Source: a phage. From it: a DNA stretch of 64,000 nt. Position numbers and translations under genes: made by a program. The notes under the pieces are model-generated. The model had not been told where the DNA came from. It did no database searches and worked only from the letters and a program-made list of their open reading frames with translations. Within the stretch, counting starts at the first letter, position 1. Each line of letters begins with the position of its first letter. Below are positions 15,991 through 28,273 of the stretch, piece by piece. Location of the stretch: sequence record PZ402305.1; one strand, written 5' to 3'.

Positions 15991-16025
15991 AGATGGGAAT
16001 GAGAAGAGTTCTCATATGGAAATGC

Positions 16026-16046: not shown

Positions 16047-16083
16047 AGGTTTATAAATGAGATTGATTCTTATTCGATAAGGT

Positions 16084-16104: not shown

Positions 16105-16362
16105 AGAGAATGACGCGCAGGGGCGGTGTTTGTCTCGCGTTCCCGTGTCCCCTCGCCATGTAATAAGAATAACAGATCCAGCCAGGAAAGCAAGCGATTA
16201 TTTCATCTTTACATTTCTTTACAAATATATAGCGCCCAGCCTACCGGCGATCAACCTTCCAACCAGTGCCCCTGGTATGTTAGCCCCGCCTTTACGCCGT
16301 GGGGTGGCGCTTCCTCTTCTGTATGTAAAACAGTATAAGCCCGATCCCTGGGCTTGTCAAGA

Positions 16363-16629
16363 TTATTTTTTGTTTTCTTGCCAGGATAGGACACCTAACC
16401 AAAAATACATATCGCCCCGCGCCCCTGGCGGGATCTTGCTTTCCCCGCCGCCACTGCAAGCCCATAGATAACCATTTGCGAACGTATCAAAATGATCTAT
16501 CTCTTCCACCTTATGATCGCCCAGGTTGAGAACGGTTTCAACCTTTAAGCCCGTTGCGCTTGCTACCTGGTGCACCGTGCCGCCTTGCCAGCCCAATGAG
16601 TGCATAAGGTGTAATGTAGTAGTTGTCAT
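16363..16629 (-). CDS. hypothetical protein (88 aa) in GC-rich island
   Basis: Only minus-strand ORF inside the plus-strand region; local GC clearly above surrounding phage DNA. Confidence 0.4.
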   Translation of the reverse strand: MTTTTLHLMHSLGWQGGTVHQVASATGLKVETVLNLGDHKVEEIDHFDTFANGYLWACSGGGESKIPPGARGDMYFWLGVLSWQENKK

Positions 16630-16736
16630 GGTATCGCCCTTTCTTTGTTGTGCGCCCTGGTTGGCGCGGTAGAAAGATGATAGCCCTTTCCTTTATATAT
16701 AGCAAGCAAAAAGAAAATAAAAAGATTGAAAAAGTG

Positions 16737-16795
16737 GTTGACGTTCGCCAGGTGGCGGCATAATATTTACCACGTAGGGCGGCAATGGTGCCGCT
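16737..16795 (+). promoter_or_regulatory. Early-type promoter + 5' hairpin module
   Basis: TTGACG-N17-TAATAT then CACGTAGGGCGGCAATGGTGCCGCTC. Confidence 0.6.
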
Positions 16796-16815
16796 CACTA
16801 TTTGGAGTTAAGATC

Positions 16816-17013
16816 ATGGCAACATTGCACATTGTGGCGAAAGCTGGACAAATCAACGTAATAGTAAACGGTTTTACTGAGTTCAGTCATCCCCAGGATG
16901 ATCATGAAACGGTTTTATCTTTCATTGATTCACTGTTAGAAATGGGAGTAATTACAGAAGATCAGCATACTGCAAAATGCAAGCGCGTTAAGCAGATTGC
17001 AGGAATAGAATAA
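16816..17013 (+). CDS. small hypothetical protein (65 aa)
   Basis: Start moved to ATG downstream of promoter/hairpin. Confidence 0.6.
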   Translation: MATLHIVAKAGQINVIVNGFTEFSHPQDDHETVLSFIDSLLEMGVITEDQHTAKCKRVKQIAGIE

Positions 17014-17018
17014 AAGTC

Positions 17019-17076
17019 TTGACAACAAGCCACAACCTGATAAGATGTATCACATAGGGGCGACAAGCGCCCCGCC
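17019..17076 (+). promoter_or_regulatory. Early-type promoter + 5' hairpin module
   Basis: TTGACA-N16-TAAGAT; hairpin GGGGCGACAAGCGCCCCGCC. Confidence 0.55.
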
Positions 17077-17097
17077 TAACAGAAGAGAGAAATCATC

Positions 17098-17370
17098 ATG
17101 GCATCATATAGCGCAACAATGATCGTAACTGGCACCACTGGTAAACCGATGAGCGGTGGCGGATCTTTCGCTAATATCAATATTGACGGGCGTTTATCCC
17201 TGGACGCAGCGATTGCCATTGCACGGGAAACATTTAAGAAAGAATGTAATTTCAACAAGCAAGATTATCTCGGTTTCGCTATTGAAAAAACCGCGCGCTT
17301 TGTTGATTATAAAAGCCCGAAAATGGTTGATACTACACTAAAAGCGCAAGATGTAGCGTTTTTGCTTTAA
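17098..17370 (+). CDS. small hypothetical protein (90 aa)
   Basis: Track ORF. Confidence 0.6.
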   Translation: MASYSATMIVTGTTGKPMSGGGSFANINIDGRLSLDAAIAIARETFKKECNFNKQDYLGFAIEKTARFVDYKSPKMVDTTLKAQDVAFLL

Positions 17371-17373
17371 GGC

Positions 17374-17429
17374 TTGACATTAACGAATAATTTGTTAATA
17401 TGTTACATAAAGCGGGAATAGTTCCCGCT
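17374..17429 (+). promoter_or_regulatory. Early-type promoter + 5' hairpin module
   Basis: TTGACA ... TAATAT; hairpin GCGGGAATAGTTCCCGC. Confidence 0.55.
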
Positions 17430-17446
17430 ATTTGTAAGGTGGTAGA

Positions 17447-17704
17447 ATGTTTTACATCAAATTAAAAGGTCACGTGATCGCGTTCAAAGATAACGCTTTT
17501 TACAGATTAGCAAAATATGCGTTAATACATCCCCACTATGTTTATATAAGGGGGCGTGACGAAATAAATATTTTTGATCAAACAACATGCGAAAACATCG
17601 AGATCCGCAAGGTTGGCGTACGTGATTATCGTACATCTTTCTACCCTTGCAAGGATTCAGCAAGTCTTTTTAAGGTATGTCAATTGTTGAAAAAAGGTGG
17701 TTAA
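17447..17704 (+). CDS. small hypothetical protein (85 aa)
   Basis: Track ORF. Confidence 0.6.
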   Translation: MFYIKLKGHVIAFKDNAFYRLAKYALIHPHYVYIRGRDEINIFDQTTCENIEIRKVGVRDYRTSFYPCKDSASLFKVCQLLKKGG

Positions 17705-17705
17705 T

Positions 17706-18263
17706 ATGGGCCGCGAATATGTGATCCAGTCTTGGGTAAAACATGAAGCAGATGATCCGCGCATCATTCCCGATCATCTTATCGATGAATCCACGGGATA
17801 TAGCGGTGAGCAAATAGGTAGCAGATTAGCACGTAGTAACGGCAACGTAAAAGCGCGTTATGTGCGCCCTGGCTGGCTGGCAAATGGTAACGCTGATTTA
17901 TCCAGTGCGGAAGATGCGAGCGACGGCGCGAAAGATAATCCTTTGTACAAAGTTGATCCGGCTTTTCGTGTCCTGGATGAATACCCCAGCAAGATAGCGG
18001 CGCTCGATCAGGCCCTGGAAAGTAAGCGCATCACCTGGACCGCTTACAACATGGCAAAAAACGTACTTGATGGTAAATTGATTCAAGCTGAAAGAAAATT
18101 AGCCAAAATTGCAGCCATAGCCCAGGAGGAAGACGAGGAGACAACGGAAGAGGAAGAGTACGAAGAGATCCCGCCGTTGTTGTGCGTTGATGCTTTTCCT
18201 GATTATCAGCCGACAGAGGAAGAAAAAAGGATCGCACTAGAAAACTTTGAAAATAGTCTTTGA
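17706..18263 (+). CDS. hypothetical protein with acidic C-terminus (185 aa)
   Basis: Start moved to ATG after AAAGGTGG; C-terminal EEDEETTEEEEYEE. Confidence 0.6.
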   Translation: MGREYVIQSWVKHEADDPRIIPDHLIDESTGYSGEQIGSRLARSNGNVKARYVRPGWLANGNADLSSAEDASDGAKDNPLYKVDPAFRVLDEYPSKIAALDQALESKRITWTAYNMAKNVLDGKLIQAERKLAKIAAIAQEEDEETTEEEEYEEIPPLLCVDAFPDYQPTEEEKRIALENFENSL

Positions 18264-18316
18264 CATATCGCCGCCACTGGCATAATATTTACCACGTAGG
18301 GCGGCAATGGTGCCGC
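18260..18316 (+). promoter_or_regulatory. Early-type promoter + 5' hairpin module
   Basis: TTGACA overlapping upstream stop; CATAAT; CACGTAGGGCGGCAATGGTGCCGC. Confidence 0.55.
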
Positions 18317-18345
18317 TCATAGTGAAATTATGCAAGAGGCTTACA

Positions 18346-18441
18346 ATGATTAATAAAGAAAATAGCTTGACGGTTGGAACGATTAACGCTATCATTTTCG
18401 CCGTTCCATTTTGGGTTGTATTAGCGGCTATTATTTTCTAA
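18346..18441 (+). CDS. small membrane peptide (31 aa)
   Basis: Not in track; only ORF behind this promoter; hydrophobic; approximate. Confidence 0.35.
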   Translation: MINKENSLTVGTINAIIFAVPFWVVLAAIIF

Positions 18442-18451
18442 AAAAATATTC

Positions 18452-18511
18452 TTGACAACGTTTTTTAATCTGATAAGATGTATCACATAGGGCGGCGGAA
18501 TACTTCCCCGC
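18452..18511 (+). promoter_or_regulatory. Early-type promoter + 5' hairpin module
   Basis: TTGACA ... TAAGAT; hairpin GGCGGCGGAATACTTCCCCGCC. Confidence 0.55.
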
Positions 18512-18533
18512 CAAAACAAAAAAGGGTAACACA

Positions 18534-18896
18534 ATGAGCAAGCAAATCAATACTATCATGTTTAATCTGGTATCTTTCCGCGATGATATGAAAAATTTAC
18601 CACGTGAAACGGTTGATATTCATGTTTCAGCTTATCGCGCCCTTATTGATATGTTACCGCTAAAACGTGATCAACATGCCGCTAATATGATGCTTAATGC
18701 TATGCTTAAAAAGATGATTCAAACGGATCTTACTCTGGCGTATGAGTATCAAGGGCGCTTATATGCTACTTACAACAAAGCGGTACCTGGTCTGGGAAGT
18801 ACCGAAGAGTTGCACGGCTTAAACCTGGATCAAAACACTTGGGATAGTATGCGCCGCGTTATGGTATGGGCCGAAAGCGGTAAAATTTACGAATAA
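18534..18896 (+). CDS. small hypothetical protein (120 aa)
   Basis: Track ORF. Confidence 0.6.
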   Translation: MSKQINTIMFNLVSFRDDMKNLPRETVDIHVSAYRALIDMLPLKRDQHAANMMLNAMLKKMIQTDLTLAYEYQGRLYATYNKAVPGLGSTEELHGLNLDQNTWDSMRRVMVWAESGKIYE

Positions 18897-18902
18897 AAAC
18901 GG

Positions 18903-18958
18903 TTGACACTGTTTAAAATTCTGGTATAGTTTATCACGTAGGGCGGCAATGGTGCCGC
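18903..18958 (+). promoter_or_regulatory. Early-type promoter + 5' hairpin module
   Basis: TTGACA ... TATAGT; CACGTAGGGCGGCAATGGTGCCGCC. Confidence 0.55.
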
Positions 18959-18979
18959 CAATAATAAAAGGTTAACATC

Positions 18980-19159
18980 ATGGCTATCATTGCAAAAACT
19001 GAGATTATAGGTTTAGATTCGATCCTCCTGGCTTATGAGGAAACTTTAAAAATGTATGTAGTGACCTATGGTGATTATGTGCGTGAATACGAATACATTG
19101 ATCTTGCTTTCGAATGTTACATTCGCCAGGTCAATAAAGCCTATAACGATTATCGTTAA
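18980..19159 (+). CDS. small hypothetical protein (59 aa)
   Basis: Not in track; sole ORF behind promoter; approximate. Confidence 0.45.
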   Translation: MAIIAKTEIIGLDSILLAYEETLKMYVVTYGDYVREYEYIDLAFECYIRQVNKAYNDYR

Positions 19160-19178
19160 AAGTTTTAGTCTTATACTA

Positions 19179-19236
19179 TTGACAATGAGTGATAGTATAA
19201 GCATAATAACTTTTATCGGGAATACTTCCCACTAAC
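19179..19236 (+). promoter_or_regulatory. Early-type promoter + 5' hairpin module
   Basis: TTGACA-N17-CATAAT; hairpin GGGAATACTTCCC. Confidence 0.5.
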
Positions 19237-19256
19237 CAAAAAGAGAGAGTGACACC

Positions 19257-19622
19257 ATGGCTATTAATATCAATGTTTCCGTTTATGCTACCCTGGCTGA
19301 CACGGCTAAAATTGAATTATCCAGCATTGAGGCGGTGCATATTAGCGCCCGTCGCTGGTTTCAACAGTCCTACGGTAACACATATTTTTCTTTAATAGTT
19401 GACGTTGAGATCGGCGGTAAACTGATCGAGGTGGTTAACGTTCCGTTTCAATATGGCTATGGTGATCATTTTGATACCGTCGCCCTGGAAGAATTTAGCA
19501 AGGTTATCAACCTTGAGGGCAAGGAATTTTCACGCGGCGCGTATCTTTCCCGTTTTTGCCGTGACAATGGGATCACTGTATACAGTCATGCAAGCGATGT
19601 AAAACGTAAAAAAGATTTATAA
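19257..19622 (+). CDS. small hypothetical protein (121 aa)
   Basis: Track ORF. Confidence 0.6.
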   Translation: MAININVSVYATLADTAKIELSSIEAVHISARRWFQQSYGNTYFSLIVDVEIGGKLIEVVNVPFQYGYGDHFDTVALEEFSKVINLEGKEFSRGAYLSRFCRDNGITVYSHASDVKRKKDL

Positions 19623-19627
19623 AAGTA

Positions 19628-19690
19628 TTGACAGCACGAATAAAAAGAGTAAACTGTATTACATAGAGAGCGGGAACACTTCCCGCCTCA
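19628..19690 (+). promoter_or_regulatory. Early-type promoter + 5' hairpin module
   Basis: TTGACA-N16-TAAACT; hairpin GCGGGAACACTTCCCGCC. Confidence 0.55.
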
Positions 19691-19710
19691 CTGAAAAAGA
19701 GAGAAAAATC

Positions 19711-19950
19711 ATGGCTAAATCTAAAATGTACAACGGTCACAAAAACAAAACTCATTGGAATGTAAGCCTTTGGATTAATAACGATGAATCATTATATCGG
19801 TTGGCGAAAGAATTTATCGCCGCTAATACTAATCGTAATGATGCTGCGCGGGATATGATGCTTTTTCTGGAACAAACTGGACAAGATAAAACGCCAGACG
19901 GTTTCAAATATAGCACTACTGCGATCCGCGCCGCGATGGTTGGAATGTAA
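19711..19950 (+). CDS. small hypothetical protein (79 aa)
   Basis: Track ORF. Confidence 0.6.
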   Translation: MAKSKMYNGHKNKTHWNVSLWINNDESLYRLAKEFIAANTNRNDAARDMMLFLEQTGQDKTPDGFKYSTTAIRAAMVGM

Positions 19951-19959
19951 TAAAAACAG

Positions 19960-20017
19960 TTGACAACGTTTAAAATTAGTGTAAGATGTATCACATAGGG
20001 CGGGAAGTGGTTTCCCG
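19960..20017 (+). promoter_or_regulatory. Early-type promoter + 5' hairpin module
   Basis: TTGACA ... TAAGAT; hairpin GGGCGGGAAGTGGTTTCCCGCC. Confidence 0.55.
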
Positions 20018-20041
20018 CCAACAACAGAGAGATTAAAGATT

Positions 20042-20269
20042 ATGGCTATCAATATTGTTCGCGTATCCGGCACCGTTGGCACTTCCCAGGTTATTGCAGT
20101 TGTAACAAACAAAAAGATTAATGATGTATGTGAGATCTTGAATAAGTGGGCTATTGCTAATTTTGGGGAATATGCAAGCGTCGAGTACATCGAATCCTAC
20201 CAGGTGCCAACCATCAGCCTAACCGATCTCAACGTTGATCGCCTGTTATGCCTGGATGAATTAATCTGA
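20042..20269 (+). CDS. small hypothetical protein (75 aa)
   Basis: Track ORF. Confidence 0.6.
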   Translation: MAINIVRVSGTVGTSQVIAVVTNKKINDVCEILNKWAIANFGEYASVEYIESYQVPTISLTDLNVDRLLCLDELI

Positions 20270-20278
20270 AAAAGATTG

Positions 20279-20335
20279 TTGACACGGGAAAGAAAAAGAG
20301 TAAACTATATTACGTAGGGCGGCAATGGTGCCGCT
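20279..20335 (+). promoter_or_regulatory. Early-type promoter + 5' hairpin module
   Basis: TTGACA-N16-TAAACT; ACGTAGGGCGGCAATGGTGCCGC. Confidence 0.55.
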
Positions 20336-20359
20336 CACAACAGAAGAGAGATTATCACG

Positions 20360-20572
20360 ATGGCTAATATCCGCACACTGTTAAAAAATGCAAAACAAGT
20401 TTTATTTTCTGATCACAATCATTTTAATAAAGATATTACAGGCGTGAAGAATATCAAAGATGTAAAAAGTGTTATGGGTATATATTGCAATGTTAAACGT
20501 GTTGGAACGTTCGGTGACAAGGTATTGTATCAATCAGGTGATTACAATTTTACTTTGACGATTATTTCATAA
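20360..20572 (+). CDS. small hypothetical protein (70 aa)
   Basis: Track ORF. Confidence 0.6.
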   Translation: MANIRTLLKNAKQVLFSDHNHFNKDITGVKNIKDVKSVMGIYCNVKRVGTFGDKVLYQSGDYNFTLTIIS

Positions 20573-20577
20573 AACGC

Positions 20578-20639
20578 TTGCAATACTGCAAAAATAAAGT
20601 AAACTGTATTACATCAAGGCGGGGAATGGTCCACCGCCT
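20578..20639 (+). promoter_or_regulatory. Early-type promoter + 5' hairpin module
   Basis: TTGCAA ... TAAACT; hairpin GGCGGGGAATGGTCCACCGCC. Confidence 0.5.
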
Positions 20640-20662
20640 AACAAAGAGAAGAGGAAAACATC

Positions 20663-20830
20663 ATGATTACTTTTACTACCCGTGAAGCCGCTCGCAACGT
20701 TGCACGTAAAGTTAACGCCGCCAACCTGGGTGCTACGCTTAAAGCCCCTGTAAAAGATGAATCAGGCAAATGGATCTTCCCTGGTCTGCGTCATGCTGAC
20801 AAGTTAGGTACTTTAAGCCTTAAAAAATAA
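20663..20830 (+). CDS. small hypothetical protein (55 aa)
   Basis: Not in track; approximate. Confidence 0.45.
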   Translation: MITFTTREAARNVARKVNAANLGATLKAPVKDESGKWIFPGLRHADKLGTLSLKK

Positions 20831-20833
20831 TCG

Positions 20834-20880
20834 TTGACTTTTCGTTATAGCGCCTTATAATGGGCGCTATAGAGAAGAGA
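20834..20880 (+). promoter_or_regulatory. Promoter with -10 embedded in a palindrome
   Basis: TTGACT-N16-TATAAT inside inverted repeat ATAGCGCC/GGCGCTAT. Confidence 0.5.
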
Positions 20881-20908
20881 AACCAATCACCAGAAAGAGA
20901 GAAAGAAA

Positions 20909-21127
20909 ATGGCAATCCGTAAAATTAAAGTTGTTTGCATTGAATCAACTGGTGGCGCGTTTGTAGTTGGTCAGAAGTATAATGCGGTTTTAATGGGCGT
21001 GGATTGGAAGGTTAAAGGTCTTGACGGTTACGAATACGGCACTACTCGCGGCTTGCGTGGTCGAATCGGATACGTGAGCTTTGACAACAAAGAAAAATTT
21101 GTTTTCGATACTGTTATGAGTAAATAG
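20909..21127 (+). CDS. small hypothetical protein (72 aa)
   Basis: Track ORF. Confidence 0.6.
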   Translation: MAIRKIKVVCIESTGGAFVVGQKYNAVLMGVDWKVKGLDGYEYGTTRGLRGRIGYVSFDNKEKFVFDTVMSK

Positions 21128-21200
21128 CACGAATTGCTAAAAACTAATCTGCGAATTGCTGTAATATCAACTAATCGAAACACATAAAGAGAAAAACATC

Positions 21201-21422
21201 ATGATCACTTTCGCTATTGTCACCGTTGTCGCTGGTCAAGTTTACGTAAATGAGACATTTACTACAGAAGACAAAGCAGCAGGAGATATAACCGCCGTTT
21301 ACAACGAGTGCAAGGCAGTAGAAAGGATGTTAGCGCCTTGTATGCTAATGAGTGAACGCCAGGACGGGATAACAGTGTTTAGCAACATTGAAACAGGGTA
21401 CCAAATGGTAGTAACAAAATAA
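21201..21422 (+). CDS. small hypothetical protein (73 aa)
   Basis: Track ORF. Confidence 0.6.
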   Translation: MITFAIVTVVAGQVYVNETFTTEDKAAGDITAVYNECKAVERMLAPCMLMSERQDGITVFSNIETGYQMVVTK

Positions 21423-21426
21423 AACT

Positions 21427-21485
21427 TGACACAGATTTAATTTTCAGTAAACTGTTACACATAGGGCGGGAATAGTTCCCGCTAA
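21427..21485 (+). promoter_or_regulatory. Early-type promoter + 5' hairpin module
   Basis: TTGACA ... TAAACT; hairpin GCGGGAATAGTTCCCGC. Confidence 0.55.
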
Positions 21486-21500
21486 AAAGAGAGAAAGACC

Positions 21501-21854
21501 ATGAAAGCACAAAATGCAATTAAAGAGTACATCCTTGCCGCTATCGATTTTAATGATTATGGTATTACAACCGAAAAAGAGAAGATCGCGGAATTGATGC
21601 GCCGTTTTAATTCCGAGTACTGGTACCCTGATAATCAATCACGTTTTAATTATAGTATTGTTAAAGCACTTGCATCATGGTTACAAGGTTTGCCATCAGA
21701 CATTAATATCGCTTTCGAATATTGGGAAATTGATCGTTTGTTAACATCCTGGGGATACATTAAAGAGAATAGCAGCGATGATAAAATCCAACGAGAAAGG
21801 GAAAATTATTGGCTTTATATTGCAGGCGTGATCCTTGCTTGCTCTTATGAATGA
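21501..21854 (+). CDS. small hypothetical protein (117 aa)
   Basis: Track ORF. Confidence 0.6.
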   Translation: MKAQNAIKEYILAAIDFNDYGITTEKEKIAELMRRFNSEYWYPDNQSRFNYSIVKALASWLQGLPSDINIAFEYWEIDRLLTSWGYIKENSSDDKIQRERENYWLYIAGVILACSYE

Positions 21855-21860
21855 TAAACC

Positions 21861-21918
21861 TTGACAATTTTACAAAACAGCTTAAATTAATAATATAGCG
21901 GCAATGGTGCCGCTCATA
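21861..21918 (+). promoter_or_regulatory. Early-type promoter + 5' hairpin module
   Basis: TTGACA ... TAATAT; hairpin GCGGCAATGGTGCCGC. Confidence 0.55.
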
Positions 21919-21933
21919 TAAAGAGGAAACAAA

Positions 21934-22080
21934 ATGAATACATCTAATCGCGCAGAAAAAATTCAATCTCCCAAGATCCGCAAGGCCTGGAACGAGGAAG
22001 TGATCCGCAAAGGCGACAAGCGTAATAAAACAAAGCGCGGGAAGAGTGACAAATATAATTGGATGGATTTAGAGGATTAA
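21934..22080 (+). CDS. small basic protein (48 aa)
   Basis: Not in track; Lys/Arg-rich; followed by terminator; approximate. Confidence 0.45.
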   Translation: MNTSNRAEKIQSPKIRKAWNEEVIRKGDKRNKTKRGKSDKYNWMDLED

Positions 22081-22084
22081 CATA

Positions 22085-22115
22085 ACAAGGGCGCACCAAG
22101 CGCCCTTTCTTTTTA
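22085..22115 (+). terminator. Rho-independent terminator
   Basis: AAGGGCGCACCAAGCGCCCTTTCTTTTT; same hairpin recurs at 27172. Confidence 0.6.
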
Positions 22116-22135
22116 CATGTAGAGGATAAACAAAA

Positions 22136-22321
22136 ATGACTTTAAACGAGCTTAAAACAGCCTACAACGCAACGTTAAAAATAGCCGTGCGTTACCGTGA
22201 CGAATACGGTTTTATTGCGCAGGGCGTGATCCTGGGCTTTTCTGACGATGGTTTGATTTATGTTGATGCACATCACAACAAGGTTAAACCGGAAAACGTT
22301 ATCAGTATAAAATATCTTTAA
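22136..22321 (+). CDS. small hypothetical protein (61 aa)
   Basis: Track ORF. Confidence 0.55.
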   Translation: MTLNELKTAYNATLKIAVRYRDEYGFIAQGVILGFSDDGLIYVDAHHNKVKPENVISIKYL

Positions 22322-22327
22322 AAGTGG

Positions 22328-22390
22328 TTGACACCATAACCGGACCTGTTAAACTGTATTACATCAGGCGGGGGAATAGTTCCCCACCAT
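22328..22390 (+). promoter_or_regulatory. Early-type promoter + 5' hairpin module
   Basis: TTGACA ... TAAACT; hairpin GGCGGGGGAATAGTTCCCCACC. Confidence 0.55.
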
Positions 22391-22407
22391 ACAAAAAGGT
22401 AAATATT

Positions 22408-22614
22408 ATGATCACCGCAAAACAAGAAAAAATCATTATCGACGTTGCAGCCGTTGCCGCTATTGCTATTATTGGATCTTATTATGATACCCGTTTCCCG
22501 TCGGCTATGCATGAGGTCGCCGCCGTTGCATCAGTTGGCGTACTGTTTTACGTTGGTAAACGCTATTTATCACCAATGATTAACAAGCTGACACCGTGGA
22601 AAAATAAAGGTTGA
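22408..22614 (+). CDS. small membrane protein (68 aa)
   Basis: Start moved to ATG after promoter; two hydrophobic segments. Confidence 0.55.
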   Translation: MITAKQEKIIIDVAAVAAIAIIGSYYDTRFPSAMHEVAAVASVGVLFYVGKRYLSPMINKLTPWKNKG

Positions 22615-22685
22615 TCCTGTTTTATATTGTGTTATAGTTATCGTGTAGGGCGGCAATGGTGCCGCGCCCCTTTGAGGATGCAATC

Positions 22686-22970
22686 ATGAGTAAAGCTAAC
22701 ACCGTGCTAATGTTTTCCCTGATTAATGATCCCGCTTACTTGTCCAACATGACGCAGGAGGGTAACACATTAACGGCAACATTCACCAATAAGCTTGACC
22801 GAGTGATCATCATCTCACTGAAAACAGTTAGTAAAGGCTTTTACTCGTTAGCTTATCATTGGATCACTGATACCGATGAGACAAGCCAGGACTATAGCGC
22901 CCCTTTCCCTGAATCAATGGCACGGGAGATCATCGCCGCCGTTGTAAATGATGGTTTGTTTACTGCATAA
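22686..22970 (+). CDS. small hypothetical protein (94 aa)
   Basis: Start moved to ATG after GAGG; hairpin GGGCGGCAATGGTGCCGC in leader. Confidence 0.55.
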   Translation: MSKANTVLMFSLINDPAYLSNMTQEGNTLTATFTNKLDRVIIISLKTVSKGFYSLAYHWITDTDETSQDYSAPFPESMAREIIAAVVNDGLFTA

Positions 22971-22985
22971 AAATTTAGAAAAGGC

Positions 22986-23045
22986 TTGCAATAATTTTGA
23001 GATAGTGTATATTTAATTCATAGGGCGGCGGGAATAGTTCCCAAA
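22986..23045 (+). promoter_or_regulatory. Early-type promoter + 5' hairpin module
   Basis: TTGCAA ... TATATT; hairpin GGGAATAGTTCCC. Confidence 0.5.
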
Positions 23046-23065
23046 GCAAACGAGAGGATTACACG

Positions 23066-23185
23066 ATGAGCAAGTACACAGTAGAATACACGGTAGAGAA
23101 TCCGGCAGTATCCGAAGGTAAAAAGATGACATTTGCCATCAGTATAATCGCTTTCGTTGTCACTATCTTATCAATCATCTTATAA
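23066..23185 (+). CDS. small membrane peptide (39 aa)
   Basis: Not in track; hydrophobic C-terminal half; approximate. Confidence 0.4.
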   Translation: MSKYTVEYTVENPAVSEGKKMTFAISIIAFVVTILSIIL

Positions 23186-23195
23186 GGTGCACACC

Positions 23196-23357
23196 ATGAA
23201 AATAACAGACATTATCAAAGAGATCGCCCTTGCCGCTGGCGTTGAAGTCGAGGAAGTGATCGCGCTCAATCTTACAGAAAACGATCTGCGCAACTATGAA
23301 GCGGAAAGCGTGAAAGCAAGCGGCGCGGTCCTGGTATATGATCCGGCTAACAAGTAA
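23196..23357 (+). CDS. small hypothetical protein (53 aa)
   Basis: In-frame ATG within track ORF 23157..23357. Confidence 0.5.
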   Translation: MKITDIIKEIALAAGVEVEEVIALNLTENDLRNYEAESVKASGAVLVYDPANK

Positions 23358-23366
23358 GGGGATAAC

Positions 23367-23477
23367 ATGAATCCGAAAGATATGCAAGCATGGAAAGGGT
23401 ACGACGATCTAAGCGCCTTGCGCAATAAGTCAAGCCGTAACCTTAGACGGTTGGAAGCAAAGAAAAAGAAAAAATAG
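23367..23477 (+). CDS. small basic peptide (36 aa)
   Basis: Not in track; AAGGGGA upstream; C-terminal KKKKK; approximate. Confidence 0.35.
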   Translation: MNPKDMQAWKGYDDLSALRNKSSRNLRRLEAKKKKK

Positions 23478-23478
23478 T

Positions 23479-23535
23479 TTGACAAGTCCGCGTAGTCTGA
23501 TAATATGTATCTTGTAGGGCGGCAATGGTGCCGCT
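23479..23535 (+). promoter_or_regulatory. Early-type promoter + 5' hairpin module
   Basis: TTGACA-N17-TAATAT; TTGTAGGGCGGCAATGGTGCCGC. Confidence 0.55.
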
Positions 23536-23555
23536 CACAAGAAGAGAGAAAAATC

Positions 23556-23840
23556 ATGAAAATTACAAAAAGCCTAACTAATTATGCAGCACGTCGCGGA
23601 TTATGTTTAACCGTTGAAAACTTAGGGAAAGAAGACTTTTTGTGTTTTTGGGAGCTTGAAAATGATTGCGAGTGGATGTTTTCTTATTCTATCTGCGAAG
23701 ATCAAAACGGTTGTTTGTTAACCTGGCGCGGTAATATCTATTTACCGGAAGAAATCAAAGAGGAACTACCAGGCACGATCATGACTGAGAAACAGCTTAA
23801 GGAAGTGATCAATTTTGTAGGGCAAAACATTAAAAAATAA
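23556..23840 (+). CDS. small hypothetical protein (94 aa)
   Basis: Start moved to ATG after promoter/hairpin. Confidence 0.6.
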   Translation: MKITKSLTNYAARRGLCLTVENLGKEDFLCFWELENDCEWMFSYSICEDQNGCLLTWRGNIYLPEEIKEELPGTIMTEKQLKEVINFVGQNIKK

Positions 23841-23841
23841 T

Positions 23842-23905
23842 TTGACAGTAGGCAAACAACGTAGTAAAGTTTATTACATAGAGCGGCGGAATGGTCCACC
23901 GCTCA
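23842..23905 (+). promoter_or_regulatory. Early-type promoter + 5' hairpin module
   Basis: TTGACA ... TAAAGT; hairpin GCGGCGGAATGGTCCACCGCTC. Confidence 0.55.
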
Positions 23906-23925
23906 CAACAGAAGAGAAACAAATC

Positions 23926-24096
23926 ATGATCCCGACTATGTTTTATGTATCGCGCAAAGGTCACAATATTTTTTGGTCTGAAGATTTAAATGAAGCTATG
24001 ACGTTTGCCCGTAATCGTGTTGCTATCGGTGGCGTTAACATCACCGTAACCGATGAAAATGGCATTGAATACTATAACGGCGACGATGAAGAATAA
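23926..24096 (+). CDS. small hypothetical protein (56 aa)
   Basis: Start moved to ATG after promoter/hairpin. Confidence 0.55.
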   Translation: MIPTMFYVSRKGHNIFWSEDLNEAMTFARNRVAIGGVNITVTDENGIEYYNGDDEE

Positions 24097-24174
24097 TTAA
24101 TGAGGCGGGGGGAGTATTCCCCGCCGTCAATATGGCGGGGCAATAAGGCAACGCCCATTAATGAGGGTAAAATC

Positions 24175-24279
24175 ATGTTAGAGAAAATTTTCACGGTTGC
24201 AGTGGTTGGCCTGGCGTTATCGGTTGGAGTGGTTGCAACTATGGCTAACATGATCCTATCTTCCCACGGTATCGGTTAA
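24175..24279 (+). CDS. small membrane peptide (34 aa)
   Basis: Not in track; preceded by two GC hairpins; approximate. Confidence 0.35.
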   Translation: MLEKIFTVAVVGLALSVGVVATMANMILSSHGIG

Positions 24280-24289
24280 GGTGAAACAA

Positions 24290-24505
24290 ATGATCACGAA
24301 CAAAACAGGCAAAACGGAATTTTTACGCGGCTTACAAGTTGGTAAGCCTGAGATCTGGCATTGCACGAAGTCCGCGCATAATGAAATGAAAGATTTCACC
24401 GCTACTTTACAACGTGTTAAAATATCTATTACACAGAAAAAAGCCTTGTTAGTAGTAGAAAACGAGATCCCACAAACTATTATTATTGTCGAGCGTACAG
24501 CATGA
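24290..24505 (+). CDS. small hypothetical protein (71 aa)
   Basis: AGGTGA then ATG at 24290. Confidence 0.55.
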   Translation: MITNKTGKTEFLRGLQVGKPEIWHCTKSAHNEMKDFTATLQRVKISITQKKALLVVENEIPQTIIIVERTA

Positions 24506-24888
24506 AAACAGAAATCATTATTGAAATCATCAACGGCTATAAAGAAGCTTTTATTTTTGCTGAATCAGCAAGGGATCATGAAGGTAATTTTATTGATAAC
24601 TTAGACGATTATGATTTTTCTCCTAGCGCGGACGAACGGATCGCCCAGGATGTAACAGCCTTTATTAATGCTAATCTTGCCGCTATCTCTGAGGCAATGA
24701 GCGACGGCGCAACAGCCAACCAGATCGGGAATGATTTACATTTTACCCGTAACAGTCACGGCGTAGGCTTTTGGGATCGCCCTGAAATATACACCACTAA
24801 CACGGCGAACCGCCTAACCAATGCAGCTAAGTTTATGCCGAACGTGTCGGCTTACATTGGTGAAGATAATTTGATTTATATTGAATAA
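24502..24888 (+). CDS. small hypothetical protein (128 aa)
   Basis: Track ORF, ATGA overlap. Confidence 0.6.
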   Translation: MKTEIIIEIINGYKEAFIFAESARDHEGNFIDNLDDYDFSPSADERIAQDVTAFINANLAAISEAMSDGATANQIGNDLHFTRNSHGVGFWDRPEIYTTNTANRLTNAAKFMPNVSAYIGEDNLIYIE

Positions 24889-24894
24889 AAAGTA

Positions 24895-24950
24895 TTGACA
24901 CAGATCGCCAGTGTGCTAATATTTACCACGTAGGGCGGCAATGGTGCCGC
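24895..24950 (+). promoter_or_regulatory. Early-type promoter + 5' hairpin module
   Basis: TTGACA ... TAATAT; CACGTAGGGCGGCAATGGTGCCGC. Confidence 0.55.
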
Positions 24951-24971
24951 TCCCCGAAAAAGGTAAACATT

Positions 24972-25163
24972 ATGGAAACCATCTCCTACCTGGAATCGAA
25001 TAACATGTTTTTTGCGCCCGTTGATGAAATCATCGAAGCATTAAACAACGAGGAAGGGATCAAAGGTTTATCTTATAGCCAACTTTTAGGAATGGTTGCA
25101 GCAAATGAAGAGCTTGCTTACTATGTTGAAAATTTTGATGAAGCTGTAATCTTTACAAAATAA
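24972..25163 (+). CDS. small hypothetical protein (63 aa)
   Basis: Track ORF. Confidence 0.6.
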   Translation: METISYLESNNMFFAPVDEIIEALNNEEGIKGLSYSQLLGMVAANEELAYYVENFDEAVIFTK

Positions 25164-25166
25164 TCC

Positions 25167-25225
25167 TTGATCTAATCTCTTAGATAACTTATATTTAATG
25201 CGTAGGGCGGCAATGGTGCCGCCGA
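25167..25225 (+). promoter_or_regulatory. Early-type promoter + 5' hairpin module
   Basis: TTGATC ... TATATT; GCGTAGGGCGGCAATGGTGCCGCC. Confidence 0.5.
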
Positions 25226-25241
25226 TAATGAGGAAAGTAAA

Positions 25242-25541
25242 ATGGAAACTATCGCTATTGTTACCGTAGAAAAACTGGTTGTTGGTGATGTATTCGCGTT
25301 AATGGTGCCTAACAGCAGCAAACTGGGCGCTTATGAAGTAATGGATCATAAAAATGAATCATTTGGCGACGGTTGCACAATGGCGGTAAAATCTTTAAAG
25401 GATGGAATCATCCGCCAGGCTAACTGGCACAAAGGGAATCAAGTCGGTTTAATATCAGCTAATTTCTTGCCAGAAGAGCAAACGTTAGACCAACTATCAG
25501 GCGGTAAGACGTTAGCCGAGCTACTGGAAACAGCGATCTAA
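25242..25541 (+). CDS. small hypothetical protein (99 aa)
   Basis: Track ORF. Confidence 0.6.
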   Translation: METIAIVTVEKLVVGDVFALMVPNSSKLGAYEVMDHKNESFGDGCTMAVKSLKDGIIRQANWHKGNQVGLISANFLPEEQTLDQLSGGKTLAELLETAI

Positions 25542-25585
25542 TCAACAAAGGGGCGGCAACGCCCCACATCAGAAAGGAAAAGATT

Positions 25586-25822
25586 ATGAGTATTGCAACA
25601 GTATTAAACGCCGTTAAAACCGCTGAATCATCCGGCTTGCATGTTGAGCTTATAGATCAACCAGGTGGCGATCTCCTTGTCCAGGTTTACCCGCCGAAAG
25701 TAGGGGATGATCATTATTGGTGCTATTCTGATACGTTCGAACAAGTAGACACGAAAGCGATCACGGCTTTTATTTTAAAAGCTATTGAAGAAAATAACTT
25801 TCATTATAACATCAATCAATAA
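25586..25822 (+). CDS. small hypothetical protein (78 aa)
   Basis: Track ORF; leader hairpin GGGGCGGCAACGCCCCAC. Confidence 0.6.
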   Translation: MSIATVLNAVKTAESSGLHVELIDQPGGDLLVQVYPPKVGDDHYWCYSDTFEQVDTKAITAFILKAIEENNFHYNINQ

Positions 25823-25879
25823 ACTTTAAGCAGGGGGCGGTAACGCCCTATTAAACGCAATAGGAAGAGGATAGAAAGC

Positions 25880-26170
25880 ATGAAAAAGATGATCGCAGTA
25901 GTTGCCCTGGTTGTTGGTATTAACGCGCCTGTAATGGCTAATGATTTGCCTGAATCCATCGCGTTAACCGATATCAACGCGGTAAACCGGATCGGCGTTA
26001 ATTATCGCCTATGCCTTGCCGCTAAAACTTTCCAGGACGGCACGACAGAATACCACGGATTCGAGGGTGTCCGGTGCGGTGAGCTTGCACGCGACCTTAA
26101 GGAAGATCCAGACCTTGAGGCCATACCGATGACCGTAAACGGTAAAGCTTACGTAAACCGCCAACAATGA
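25880..26170 (+). CDS. small secreted protein with signal peptide (96 aa)
   Basis: MKKMIAVVALVVGINAPVMAND; leader hairpin GGGGGCGGTAACGCCC. Confidence 0.6.
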   Translation: MKKMIAVVALVVGINAPVMANDLPESIALTDINAVNRIGVNYRLCLAAKTFQDGTTEYHGFEGVRCGELARDLKEDPDLEAIPMTVNGKAYVNRQQ

Positions 26171-26181
26171 GAAAGGTAATC

Positions 26182-26409
26182 ATGACAATGGGGATCATAG
26201 TAGCAACGCTGGCGCTGATCCCCTTCCTGGTTGAATATGTGCTGATTAGTGTTGTCCTGGTAGTCAGTGACTTATTGGAAACGGTTGGCACCTGGGAGCA
26301 GGGGAAGATAATCACCGGACGACCCCGCTATATATTGATAGCTAACATCTATCAAACAACAAAACATCAAAGAGATAAACTATCAAATCTTTACAATCCT
26401 ACCTATTGA
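26182..26409 (+). CDS. small membrane protein (75 aa)
   Basis: Start moved to ATG after AAAGG; hydrophobic N-terminal half. Confidence 0.55.
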   Translation: MTMGIIVATLALIPFLVEYVLISVVLVVSDLLETVGTWEQGKIITGRPRYILIANIYQTTKHQRDKLSNLYNPTY

Positions 26410-26465
26410 CACCGGATCACGCTTACATTATCATTTATCACGTAGGGCGGGAATGTTTCCCGCCT
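26406..26465 (+). promoter_or_regulatory. Early-type promoter + 5' hairpin module
   Basis: TTGACA ... CATTAT; CACGTAGGGCGGGAATGTTTCCCGCC. Confidence 0.55.
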
Positions 26466-26482
26466 GATTTAGGAGTCATATC

Positions 26483-26716
26483 ATGATCGAACAAATTAAA
26501 AGCACTAAACCAAATGTTAACGGTAATGTTTCTCACTTTATCGGGGATAATGAAAGAGGTACACCGTACGCCGCCGTAACCGTTCAACCGAACGGGGATT
26601 ATTGGTTTACCGTGTACGGATCTTACTCTTTTGGACGTTCGGCACATGATAAGATCTTGCAAGTGGTTAAGCCTACTGGGAAGAATATCACAGCAGAAAA
26701 ATTTTATAAAAAATAA
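26483..26716 (+). CDS. small hypothetical protein (77 aa)
   Basis: Track ORF. Confidence 0.6.
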   Translation: MIEQIKSTKPNVNGNVSHFIGDNERGTPYAAVTVQPNGDYWFTVYGSYSFGRSAHDKILQVVKPTGKNITAEKFYKK

Positions 26717-26717
26717 C

Positions 26718-26775
26718 TTGCTTTATAGCTCCTGTTAACTTATAGTTATTGCGTAGGGCGAGCAATACAGCAAGC
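26718..26775 (+). promoter_or_regulatory. Early-type promoter + 5' hairpin module
   Basis: TTGCTT ... TATAGT; GCGTAGGGCGAGCAATACAGCAAGCCC. Confidence 0.5.
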
Positions 26776-26794
26776 CCACAAAGAGGAAAAGAAG

Positions 26795-27163
26795 ATGAGC
26801 AAATCAGCAATTAAAGCACTTGAAAAAGCACAAGAAGTGATCGCAACGTCAACCACTGGCGCAAAGGTTAATCTCGTTGGTTATCTGACAGATGAAACTA
26901 TCCGTAAAAATTGGCGTAATGCTGATTTACTGGCTTGCTTATTGATTAATAGTGTCGCTAATGCTTTCCAGTGTGAAACAGCCGAGAGCCTGGAGGAAAA
27001 CTTGTTTGATAATATGGATCAAGCCATTGAAACCTATATACAATCAAACATGGATAGCTGGAACAGTAAAACATGGCCCGACAATTTACGCGATACAACT
27101 GATCAACTGATCCGCCTTGCCTTGATGGTTGAACGCGATAACGTTCACAACCGCACAAAGTAA
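26795..27163 (+). CDS. small hypothetical protein (122 aa), last gene of array
   Basis: Track ORF followed by terminator. Confidence 0.6.
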   Translation: MSKSAIKALEKAQEVIATSTTGAKVNLVGYLTDETIRKNWRNADLLACLLINSVANAFQCETAESLEENLFDNMDQAIETYIQSNMDSWNSKTWPDNLRDTTDQLIRLALMVERDNVHNRTK

Positions 27164-27171
27164 GATTATAC

Positions 27172-27200
27172 AAGGGGCGCACCAAGCGCCCTTTCTTTTT
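27172..27200 (+). terminator. Rho-independent terminator ending the small-gene array
   Basis: GGGGCGCACCAAGCGCCCTTTCTTTTTG; same hairpin as at 22086. Confidence 0.6.
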
Positions 27201-28273
27201 GCCCGAATAATGTTGATAGATTCCGCCTATGGAAAACCGACACAGAACAAAACTGAATAAATAGCGGTATCGAGCTAATCAACCATTAAACGAATAACCA
27301 TACCTCCCAGGGTAACAGGCTGTTAGAGAGCCATTTAGAGCGGTTAAAATCGATCAACAACCAACAAAAAACCATCAAAAACACCCTTTTACCTCCTTTC
27401 TAGTGCAATGATAACCATTATCATCTATCCATGTTTATCTATGCAATATAAGTGCATAACTATAATGTTGATAATAGTTCGCAACAACTAACTAACCAAC
27501 AACCTAAAACAATAAGCAAACTAATCATAATCAAAGGAATAATAGCAAGATGATTGATAACGACAAACAATCAAACCATGATGAATACTAAGCAAGATAA
27601 CGATAACACGACAAAACAACCAACTAACGAACAATAACAAACGAAACCATTAAAATAATAACTATTAGCAAAATAGTGCCTGAATGAAATCATTACAAAA
27701 CGAATCATTCACAGGATCATCATTAGCACGCTATGCCGGACACATAGCGAGCTAATAATAAGCCAACTACACCCCAACAATCATAACCATCGGTGATGGT
27801 TATTTCTTGTTACTGCGTAGCTTGCAATAATTGCAAGCGTAATACGCTTACACTTATTGCGCTGGCTTATTATTAGCATTATATGTAATTACCAAGATCA
27901 TAACATTAGCGCAATAACAATAATCATTGTGGTAATTACAAGATGAAATAATCGCTATCGCTCAAAGATCATTAGCAAGATGAATAATTGCACGTAGCAA
28001 CATGAGCGAATAGCGACAGGTTGCATAGTGTGCACATAGATGTACACGTAGTGTATAAACATACAGGAAAATAAAGGCTAATCTTTTGGGGGCGAATACT
28101 ATCGCGTAGCGATATGTTGAGCACTAAGAGAAGAGATAAACCTTAATCATGGGGGCGTAAATATCCGCAGGATTGCCAACGGCGATCCGGTAGGATGTTG
28201 AGCATCTTCTCTTAAACGTAAATAAAATCAGAAAATTCTTGATTTATTTTAGTTTTTATGTTAATAAACGTTT

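Follow-up and report, generated by a model that had tools for sequence, protein, structure and literature searches.

The stretch of phage DNA analysed here, referred to as the window, comprises 64,000 nucleotides (nt) of sequence record PZ402305.1. The subject of this report is a dense array of small genes at positions 16737-27200, together with the composite cassette, made up of a promoter, a GC-rich hairpin and a Shine-Dalgarno (SD) sequence, that is repeated between these genes. A megablast search of the GenBank phage collection revealed Escherichia phage tuntematon as the nearest relative of the array, with 97% identity over 97% of the query, and the next-best matches are other members of Phapecoctavirus (Stephanstirmvirinae; phAPEC8-like myoviruses of ~150 kb). 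An assignment to the T5-like phages, to which the GC content and the strong promoters had pointed, was rejected on this result. The homologous stretch of tuntematon carries 35 consecutive genes, all annotated as 'hypothetical protein'. In the window, 34 plus-strand genes (g01 to g34) were recognised between 16816 and 27163, encoding proteins of 31-185 amino acids (aa) with a median of 74 aa, and 78% of the array span is coding. This agrees with an earlier sequence-only reading of the window, which had counted at least 30 very small plus-strand genes; its upper length of 188 aa corresponds to g04 with a GTG start, against 185 aa here. No minus-strand gene within the array is supported, and neither tRNA genes nor Rfam families were found in scans of the whole window. 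When the array genes were compared with those of seven Phapecoctavirus relatives, variable sites fell at codon positions 1, 2 and 3 in the ratio 221:111:552, a pattern which indicates purifying selection on the open reading frames (ORFs) as proteins. The ORFs, whose coding signal the sequence-only reading had left to be checked, are thus real coding sequences.

The intergenic regions of the array are copies of one composite cassette, a point missed by the sequence-only reading. The cassette occupies the entire intergenic gap of about 73-97 nt (mostly ~75-85 nt), and an alignment of 22 copies gives the order as a stop codon within an A-tract, TTGACA, a spacer of 16-17 nt, TAnnnT, TATCACRTAG, a GC hairpin, an A/G-rich leader with the SD, and ATG; the consensus of the alignment is AAAAAAA-nnn-TTGACA ... 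AAAGnnAnAnnATCATG. The conserved stretch from the -10 to the stem, TATCACRTAG, is ~10 nt long and is referred to as the box, the stem of the hairpin has 6-12 bp, and the SD is unpaired and purine-rich (AAGAGAGA). The order of promoter, GC hairpin and SD, already proposed from the sequence alone, holds in ~21 of 23 promoters, each of these having a GC hairpin downstream followed by a purine-rich SD, and in most copies the stem begins 10-11 nt past the -10. The hairpins are of the types GGCGGCA-ATGG-TGCCGCC, GCGGGAA-TAG-TTCCCGC and GGGGCG-ACAAG-CGCCCC, along with bulged forms. The genes, cassettes and terminators are as follows, in coordinates of the window; bit scores and E values given for cassettes are those of the covariance model described below.

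16738-16815, plus: g01 cassette, TTGACG-N17-TAATAT, box TTACCACGTA, hairpin GGGCGGCAATGGTGCCGCTC, SD GGAG; 37 bits
16816-17013, plus: g01, 65 aa, phrog_23268
17019-17097, plus: g02 cassette, TTGACA-N16-TAAGAT (TG-extended), hairpin GGGGCGACAAGCGCCCC; relatives have other hairpin types here
17098-17370, plus: g02, 90 aa
17374-17446, plus: g03 cassette, TTGACA-N16-TAATAT, hairpin AGCGGGAATAGTTCCCGCT
17447-17704, plus: g03, 85 aa
17706-18263, plus: g04, 185 aa, acidic, phrog_16605; no promoter of its own, 1-nt gap from g03; no PDB relative
18260-18345, plus: g05 cassette, TTGACA-N17-TAATAT, hairpin GGGCGGCAATGGTGCCGCTC
18346-18441, plus: g05, 31 aa, predicted membrane peptide
18452-18533, plus: g06 cassette, TTGACA-N16-TAAGAT, hairpin GGCGGCGGAATACTTCCCCGCC; 52.6 bits
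18534-18896, plus: g06, 120 aa; jumbo phage phAPEC6 has a homologue preceded by a cassette of this type
18903-18979, plus: g07 cassette, TTGACA-N16-TATAGT, hairpin GGCGGCAATGGTGCCGCC
18980-19159, plus: g07, 59 aa; missing from 4 of 7 relatives
19179-19256, plus: g08 cassette, TTGACA-N17-CATAAT, weak hairpin GGGAATACTTCCC (z -0.7)
19257-19622, plus: g08, 121 aa
19628-19710, plus: g09 cassette, TTGACA-N16-TAAACT, hairpin GAGAGCGGGAACACTTCCCGCCTC (z -4.3)
19711-19950, plus: g09, 79 aa, Pfam DUF7249; copies 82-88% identical in nt in Asteriusvirus jumbo phages and Vequintavirus
19960-20041, plus: g10 cassette, TTGACA-N16-TAAGAT, hairpin GGCGGGAAGTGGTTTCCCGCC
20042-20269, plus: g10, 75 aa; mosaic, 79-82% identity in two relatives and 94-100% in the others
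20279-20359, plus: g11 cassette, TTGACA-N16-TAAACT, hairpin GGGCGGCAATGGTGCCGCTC
20360-20572, plus: g11, 70 aa; 5 of 7 relatives lack it, have part of it or have a 75% identical copy
20578-20662, plus: g12 cassette, TTGCAA-N16-TAAACT, hairpin AGGCGGGGAATGGTCCACCGCCT
20663-20830, plus: g12, 55 aa, basic
20834-20908, plus: g13 cassette, TTGACT-N16-TATAAT; inverted repeat ATAGCGCC/GGCGCTAT brackets the -10, as in the promoter-early stem-loop (PeSL) layout of phage RB49
20909-21127, plus: g13, 72 aa; 4 of 7 relatives lack it, whereas rV5 has it with 87.5% aa identity
21201-21422, plus: g14, 73 aa; no convincing promoter or hairpin upstream
21426-21500, plus: g15 cassette, TTGACA-N16-TAAACT, hairpin GGCGGGAATAGTTCCCGCT (z -4.1)
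21501-21854, plus: g15, 117 aa
21861-21933, plus: g16 cassette, TTGACA-N16-TAAATT, hairpin AGCGGCAATGGTGCCGCT nearer the -10 than in other copies; 21.7 bits
21934-22080, plus: g16, 48 aa, Pfam PF08200 Phage_1_1 (T7 gene 1.1 family)
22087-22115, plus: internal intrinsic terminator T1, AAGGGCGCACCAAGCGCCCTT then TCTTTTT; hairpin 22087-22107
22136-22321, plus: g17, 61 aa, directly past T1, no promoter of its own
22328-22407, plus: g18 cassette, TTGACA-N16-TAAACT, hairpin GGCGGGGGAATAGTTCCCCACC
22408-22614, plus: g18, 68 aa, possible membrane protein
22611-22685, plus: g19 cassette, TTGATC-N16-TATAGT, hairpin GGGCGGCAATGGTGCCGCGCC
22686-22970, plus: g19, 94 aa (revised start)
22986-23065, plus: g20 cassette, TTGCAA-N16-TATATT, degraded hairpin GGGAATAGTTCCC (z -0.7; E 0.04)
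23066-23477, plus: g20, g21 and g22, 39 aa (membrane peptide), 53 aa and 36 aa; three-gene operon behind one cassette
23479-23555, plus: g23 cassette, TTGACA-N16-TAATAT, hairpin GGGCGGCAATGGTGCCGCTC (z -5.1)
23556-23840, plus: g23, 94 aa
23842-23925, plus: g24 cassette, TTGACA-N17-TAAAGT, hairpin GAGCGGCGGAATGGTCCACCGCTC (z -5.2)
23926-24096, plus: g24, 56 aa
24097-24174, plus: intergenic 'half cassette', promoter-less, two GC hairpins; takes a 319-nt gene module in two relatives
24175-24888, plus: g25, g26 and g27, 34 aa (membrane peptide), 71 aa and 128 aa; translationally coupled
24895-24971, plus: g28 cassette, TTGACA-N16-TAATAT, hairpin GGGCGGCAATGGTGCCGCTC
24972-25163, plus: g28, 63 aa; found in just 2 of 7 relatives
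25167-25241, plus: g29 cassette, TTGATC-N17-TATATT, hairpin GGCGGCAATGGTGCCGCC
25242-25541, plus: g29, 99 aa
25547-25565, plus: promoter-less hairpin before g30, GGGGCGGCAACGCCCC; left repeat of the g30 deletion
25586-25822, plus: g30, 78 aa; missing from phage anhysbys
25831-25849, plus: promoter-less hairpin before g31, GGGCGGTAACGCCC; 15/19 identity with 25547-25565, forming the right repeat of the g30 deletion
25880-26170, plus: g31, 96 aa, signal-peptide-like N-terminal segment
26167-26409, plus: g32, chimeric ORF of 80 aa
26406-26482, plus: g33 cassette, TTGACA-N17-TATCAT, hairpin GGGCGGGAATGTTTCCCGCCT
26483-26716, plus: g33, 77 aa; missing from 5 of 7 relatives
26718-26794, plus: g34 cassette, TTGCTT-N17-TATAGT, divergent hairpin GGGCGAGCAATACAGCAAGCCC; E 0.17
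26795-27163, plus: g34, 122 aa, last gene of the array
27172-27200, plus: terminal intrinsic terminator T2, AAGGGGCGCACCAAGCGCCCTTT then CTTTTT; hairpin 27172-27194

Two gene models deserve comment. The start of g19 was moved from 22656, which falls within the hairpin, to 22686, which is more likely. In g32, amino acids 1-43 alone match a family of 44-aa membrane peptides (phrog_16005), and the remainder of this chimeric ORF resulted from the loss, between 25-26-nt repeats at 26270-26295, of a gene that relatives possess.

On its plus strand, the array has 15 occurrences of the promoter motif TTGACA-N16/17-TAnnnT, and on its minus strand there are none, as compared to four plus-strand and four minus-strand occurrences in the other 53.5 kb of the window (8 per 107 kb of single-strand sequence). 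When relaxed -35 hexamers (TTGACG, TTGACT, TTGCAA, TTGATC, TTGCTT) and one CATAAT -10 are admitted, a promoter is located at most 100 nt upstream of 23 of the 34 genes. The -10 hexamers are TAAGAT, TAAACT, TAATAT, TATAGT and similar, as listed by the sequence-only reading, whose proposal of individual strong promoters for about 20 genes is borne out. Among orthologous copies in the seven relatives, mismatches in the -35 amount to 1 in 774 (0.13%), and the divergence per site is 3.2% in the -10, 5.1% in the box, 4.4% in the hairpin zone, 6.1% in the spacer and 7.4% at codon position 3. A nearly invariant -35, as compared to 7.4% at third codon positions, shows the promoters to be clearly functional and under strong purifying selection. 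Early expression of the array is suggested solely by the near-consensus sigma-70 character of these promoters. Canonical terminators, with a GC hairpin directly before a U-tract, number two, T1 and T2, which were the only elements picked by a generic terminator scan; the cassette hairpins do not have this arrangement. The terminators noted earlier at 22086 and 27172 are therefore present (at 22087 and 27172), but their hairpins are not identical as had been claimed, the second having one extra G.

The element downstream of the promoter is equally confined to the array. The 8-mer TAGGGCGG is present in 13 copies, every one on the plus strand within the array and none elsewhere in the window. 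A covariance model built on the post-promoter element (box and hairpin) detected 20 copies with E<=0.05 and a 21st with E=0.17, all on the plus strand between 16767 and 26788, and the same model gave one match in the remaining 87.5 kb of tuntematon. This extra-array copy, at ~39.27 kb of the tuntematon record, consists of TTGACA-N16-TAAGAT and hairpin GCGGGGAATAGTTCCCCGC and precedes the gene of a TerC-like membrane protein. A strict scan for a promoter with a perfect stem recorded 17 occurrences in the array and ~5 elsewhere in the window (both strands), with 0-5 per shuffled window.

Folding of 20 predicted leaders gave a single 5'-proximal hairpin with an open SD in 17, with free energies of -12 to -16 kcal/mol and z of -2 to -5. 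When copies from three genera were folded individually, 36 of 36 elements formed the hairpin, with 30 distinct stem sequences and 17 G-U pairs as compared to 7 A-C mismatches; this excess of G-U pairs lends weak support to a structure of the sense strand at the RNA level. At orthologous sites, the relatives display 40 distinct hairpin variants, most of the point changes being located in loops, and they often hold an entirely different hairpin type at the same site. The mean change in folding free energy (ddG) of the 40 variants is +0.05 kcal/mol, as compared to +2.9 for an equal number of random substitutions. It is the structure that is conserved. A purine located 6-8 nt past the -10, if used as the start, would leave 2-5 unpaired nt before the stem, as predicted from the -10 spacing.

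The gene content of the array is highly variable. Of 292 matching records, just 14 span 80% or more of the array, whereas an adjacent small-gene block of equal length (34000-44463, ~30 genes), taken as a control, is covered to the same extent by 60 of 72 records. Furthermore, 15 of the 34 genes are missing or incomplete in one or more of seven close relatives that are otherwise 92-100% identical, several further genes are mosaic with 75-90% identity among these relatives, and colinear chaining with the relatives revealed at least 13 distinct indel events. This synteny comparison confirms the hyper-variable locus proposed by the sequence-only reading.

Junctions of these events fall in repeats. 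The deletion of g07 is bounded by an 11/12-nt repeat, CAYCATGGCTAT, at the SD-ATG, and that of g33 in Ro121c4YLVW, anhysbys and SKA64 by a repeat matching at 14/18 nt, CGTAGGGCG / TTATYRCGTAGGGCG, in the box. For g30, the two promoter-less hairpins at 25547-25565 and 25831-25849 provide a 15/19-nt repeat, and for g28 the junction is a 62-nt overlap with the g29 cassette, covering the entire 5' untranslated region (UTR). A one-gene insert of 535-540 nt in four relatives is flanked by a duplicated 25-nt T2 terminator hairpin, and inserts of 250-590 nt within g32 are flanked by the 25-26-nt repeat at 26270-26295. Past g21, relatives have an insertion of 361 nt. Although selection for viable recombinants must have a share in this pattern, the overlap of the flanks in repeats points to homologous exchange within the cassettes.

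The cassette also occurs in other phages. The homologous array of Justusliebigvirus Paula yields 13 covariance-model matches with E<0.001 and has stem variants of its own. In rV5 (Vequintavirinae), the same layout is found at the annotated promoter P168, and g13 is held in common. The 350-kb jumbo phage phAPEC6 (Asteriusvirus) has homologues of g06 and g09, the latter 88% identical in nt, each behind TTGCAA-N16-TATAAT and a correctly spaced hairpin; the hairpin which precedes g09 in the window precedes the g06 homologue in phAPEC6, so that genes and cassettes reassort. The type-A box turned up in 138 phage records, and Phapecoctavirus genomes have 4-6 copies each. In the T5-like phage poul149, 27 nt at 701-727 of the left terminal repeat (pre-early region) match the -10 and box, TAATATTTATCACGTAGGGCGGCAATG; the hairpin is not intact there, and the stretch may be what is left of the cassette in an unrelated family. 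In IMG/VR, multi-copy, model-positive loci are present solely on contigs of 97-153 kb; ~70 single pattern matches on contigs of 4-55 kb have no covariance-model match and were dismissed as chance or unrelated. Across the array, coliphage Stephanstirmvirinae genomes share 86-97% identity with records labelled as Campylobacter phage B15/A110a, Acinetobacter phage ABPW7, Pseudomonas phage PsgM04F and Klebsiella phage ZCKP1, whose host labels look doubtful.

Each of the 34 array proteins matches a PHROG family, and the sole Pfam matches are those of g09 (DUF7249) and g16, the latter scoring 49.9 bits with PF08200 (cut-off 21; E 4.5e-13; profile positions 2-40 of 40). PADLOC returned nothing meaningful for the array proteins, and sequence searches of the PDB with the six largest found no relative. 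The AlphaFold model of g27, with a predicted local distance difference test (pLDDT) score of 94, has no fold match in the PDB and matches just uncharacterised phage proteins in BFVD; its family is restricted to rV5-like and phAPEC8-like phages. Many of the proteins are acidic, five or six are membrane peptides and one has a signal peptide, and this make-up would be compatible with host manipulation, exclusion or counter-defence but proves nothing. A match to a characterised inhibitor was not found in Pfam, PHROG, PADLOC or the PDB, which is weak evidence as no dedicated anti-defence library was used. The host-takeover or anti-defence role put forward in the sequence-only reading thus receives no direct support, all 34 PHROG families being of unknown function and the PDB giving neither a sequence nor a fold match. 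The array proteins probably serve to manipulate the host, exclude other phages or counter its defences. Those anti-defence genes of the genus that have experimental support, the MazG-like Atd1 and the NTase, are located elsewhere in the genome, and both were discarded as an anti-defence lead for the array on account of their position outside it.

The array is probably the immediate-early accessory region of a phAPEC8-like phage, composed of autonomous promoter/5'-hairpin/SD cassettes that double as recombination linkers, with the hairpin acting as an mRNA 5' stabiliser. Upon DNA entry, the host RNA polymerase holoenzyme would start at each cassette and give short mono- or oligocistronic mRNAs. 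Transcripts beginning 2-5 nt ahead of the hairpin would each carry a 5'-terminal stem-loop, which may shield the mRNA from 5'-end-dependent decay (RppH/RNase E) and keep the ribosome site in a constant, open context. It is known that 5'-terminal stem-loops with at most ~4 unpaired nt stabilise E. coli mRNAs, as in the ompA leader and the T7 phi10 leader. T1 (22087) and T2 (27172) alone would close the two halves of the array. Recombination among the cassettes and duplicated terminators would delete, insert and swap single genes and swap hairpin types; as the cassettes are repeats, they may serve as portable homology, each surviving product being a ready-to-express module.

The position of the hairpin in the 5' UTR, without a U-tract, makes it more likely to be an mRNA 5' stabiliser or insulator than a terminator. 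That the cassette hairpins are terminators or attenuators insulating the genes from upstream transcription, as proposed and measured for the PeSL stem-loops of RB49/phi1, is unlikely. In favour of this reading, the hairpins are stable, rich in GC and located between genes, termination by a PeSL stem-loop was seen with a lacZ reporter (PMC2839356), and the annotators of phage Paula called several of them 'terminator'. An RB49-like arrangement, in which the hairpin overlies the promoter or sits within it, does occur in the g13 cassette and in the minus-strand promoter at 16360. However, ~21 hairpins sit 10-11 nt past their own -10, where an efficient terminator would abort its own transcript; the sequence downstream of them is A-rich rather than a T-run, the generic terminator scan chose just the T-run hairpins at 22087 and 27172, and the Paula 'terminators' are annotated opposite in strand to the genes. 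It is rather doubtful, too, that the box and hairpin (TATCACRTAGGGCGG...) are a protein recognition site, whether an operator or roadblock for a regulator shutting early promoters, a site for an RNA-binding or processing factor, or one for a recombinase, with the structure being secondary. Such a site would explain the conservation of the unpaired ~10 nt before the stem across copies and genera and the presence of the same box in unrelated coliphage families; the element, at +1 to ~+30 of every promoter, is in an ideal roadblock position, and a small divergent gene of unknown function flanks the array. The 30 stem variants among 36 copies, with stability kept, nevertheless fit a role of the structure rather than sequence recognition, the box divergence of 5.1% between orthologous copies is near neutral, and no candidate regulator was found, the flanking 88-aa protein having no Pfam match.

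Hairpin promoters exist for the N4 virion RNA polymerase, and phAPEC8 RefSeq marks GTAGGGCGGCAATGGTGCCG as 'putative promoter determined with PHIRE'. A phage-specific promoter for a modified or phage-encoded polymerase is still very improbable, as PHIRE reports merely over-represented 20-mers, the element varies in sequence and is invariably placed, at a fixed spacing, between a sigma-70 promoter and an SD, and no phage RNA polymerase is annotated in the examined parts of the sister genome. A wider role, which we put forward only tentatively, is that the cassette is a shared adaptor for early-gene exchange among unrelated coliphage lineages (Stephanstirmvirinae, Vequintavirinae, Asteriusvirus jumbo phages and, as a remnant, a T5-like pre-early region), its box and hairpin being recognised by a dedicated factor that coordinates the fate of immediate-early mRNAs. 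If so, any small gene flanked by cassettes could move between co-infecting phages and be expressed at once, and the dedicated factor would be an RNA-binding or decay-control protein, or a recombination helper.

Several observations weigh against the reading of the array as an accessory region of stabilised, recombining early cassettes. Eleven of the 34 genes have no promoter of their own, and the hairpins of the g08 and g20 cassettes are weak. A formal covariation test on the model-fitted alignment gave 74.8% paired, and 3' partners slid by -1 did equally well, because stem lengths vary among the copies. The excess of G-U pairs is modest and also compatible with a DNA-level role for the inverted repeat, and the 10 nt between the -10 and the stem are over-conserved for a mere spacer, which hints at an additional sequence-specific function. 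The location of junctions in intergenic repeats could partly reflect the survival of viable recombinants rather than a preference of recombination. None of the array proteins has a demonstrated function, 'unknown function' being the PHROG description throughout, and a literature search found no transcriptome or 5'-end map for Stephanstirmvirinae or Vequintavirinae.

The surroundings of the array and the records of its relatives provided further observations. The left boundary is formed by a divergent gene with its own promoter:

16363-16715, minus: divergent 88-aa gene (16363-16629) with its own promoter (16705-16677), hairpin and SD

The encoded protein has no Pfam match but matches phrog_19316 (unknown function); both tuntematon and Paula have it in conserved form, and it might regulate the array. 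Farther left on the minus strand (16218-16360) lies a near-perfect promoter, TTGACA (16360)-N17-TATACT (16332), with a hairpin in the spacer (RB49-type PeSL layout); it faces a GC-rich stretch of ~100 nt without an ORF, which folds at -38.8 kcal/mol (z -2.3), terminates in TATATATTTG and is a candidate small RNA. The AT-rich region 15780-16100 contains repeated AACTTTAAATTTTG / TTTTGTAAA motifs, and its homologous stretch in tuntematon is annotated as repeat_region. Directly past the terminal terminator of the array begins a stretch of ~1.6 kb (27200-28810) without an ORF of more than 50 aa, A/C-rich on the plus strand and 92-96% conserved in relatives, in which no clear repeats and no Rfam match were found; it is a possible origin, packaging or regulatory region, and the rV5 genome map likewise shows a 'non-coding' box (PMC3606486). 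Among the records of tuntematon, anhysbys and SKA64, spurious product names were noticed for the homologues of g11 (70 aa; 'phosphoribosylpyrophosphate synthetase'), g16 (48 aa; 'TDP-4-keto-6-deoxy-D-glucose transaminase', really T7 gp1.1-like) and g27 ('putative peptidase'). Coordinate 1 of phAPEC8 (NC_020079) corresponds to the internal terminator T1 (22087 of the window), so that this record splits the array into its first and last genes and hides it as a unit.

Small early-gene arrays with strong promoters are familiar to phage biologists, and immediate-early accessory genes are the usual hiding place of host-takeover and counter-defence functions. If the interpretation of the cassettes as expression units and recombination linkers is true, PeSL-type modular shuffling would reach beyond T4-like phages into several large coliphage groups, and a concrete mechanism would be at hand for the turnover of their accessory early genes. 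The cassette would also provide a sequence signature for immediate-early accessory genes in rV5-like and phi92-like therapeutic phages, whose early regions are wholly 'hypothetical', and the promoter, 5' hairpin and SD would constitute a compact, naturally insulated unit of strong expression with possible use in synthetic biology.

Parts of the cassette have been annotated before as separate, unrelated features. In the homologous region of phAPEC8 RefSeq (NC_020079), the sigma-70 part is marked as 'host dependent promoter determined with MEME', separate from the PHIRE hairpin 20-mer, and in that of rV5 (NC_011041) promoters are marked as 'Sigma70-type promoter', the rV5 paper listing 33 sigma-70 promoters (PMC3606486). 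With the ompA and T7 phi10 leaders, the array leaders share a predicted stable hairpin a few nt from the 5' end followed by an unstructured ribosome-binding region, but here the hairpin is multi-copy, recombining and present on ~21 genes, and the 5' end is predicted from sequence alone. The early and pre-early regions of T5, T7 and T4 resemble the array in having a -35 close to the consensus, leaders rich in purines, numerous small genes that are not essential, and marked variation among relatives, and the array contains a homologue of T7 gp1.1 in g16; in those phages, however, one promoter usually serves several genes, whereas most array genes own a copy of the cassette.

PeSL cassettes have been described in the T4-like phages RB49/phi1, PST/T4 and nt-1/KVP40 (Arbiol et al. 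2010, PMC2839356; Comeau et al. 2014, PMC4122927). They are composite elements of hyperplastic regions, mediate indels and mini-circle formation, and have their stem-loop upstream of, inside or over the promoter, where it was shown to terminate upstream transcription (PMC2839356, PMC4122927). Like them, the array cassettes are intergenic repeats with a stop codon in an A/T-rich tract, a strong sigma-70-like promoter, a stem-loop, an SD and ATG, concentrated in a hyperplastic region of small orphan ORFs (ORFans). Indel and replacement junctions between close relatives fall inside the motif (g07, g28, g30, g33, T2 and g32; repeats of 12-62 nt), 'half' or degraded cassettes are present, and the RB49 layout recurs at g13, with the hairpin over the -10, and in the minus-strand promoter at 16360, where the hairpin occupies the spacer. 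The array cassettes differ from PeSLs in belonging to Stephanstirmvirinae, and also Vequintavirinae and Asteriusvirus, in having an extra conserved box between the -10 and the stem, and in the location of the hairpin 10-11 nt past the -10, in the transcribed leader and without a U-tract, so that it is unlikely to act as the upstream terminator described for PeSLs. A literature search found no description of the composite cassette, of its position in the 5' UTR or of a part played by it in the shuffling of genes. Among the kinds known so far the PeSL comes nearest, and the array is a modestly novel form of it in other phage lineages.

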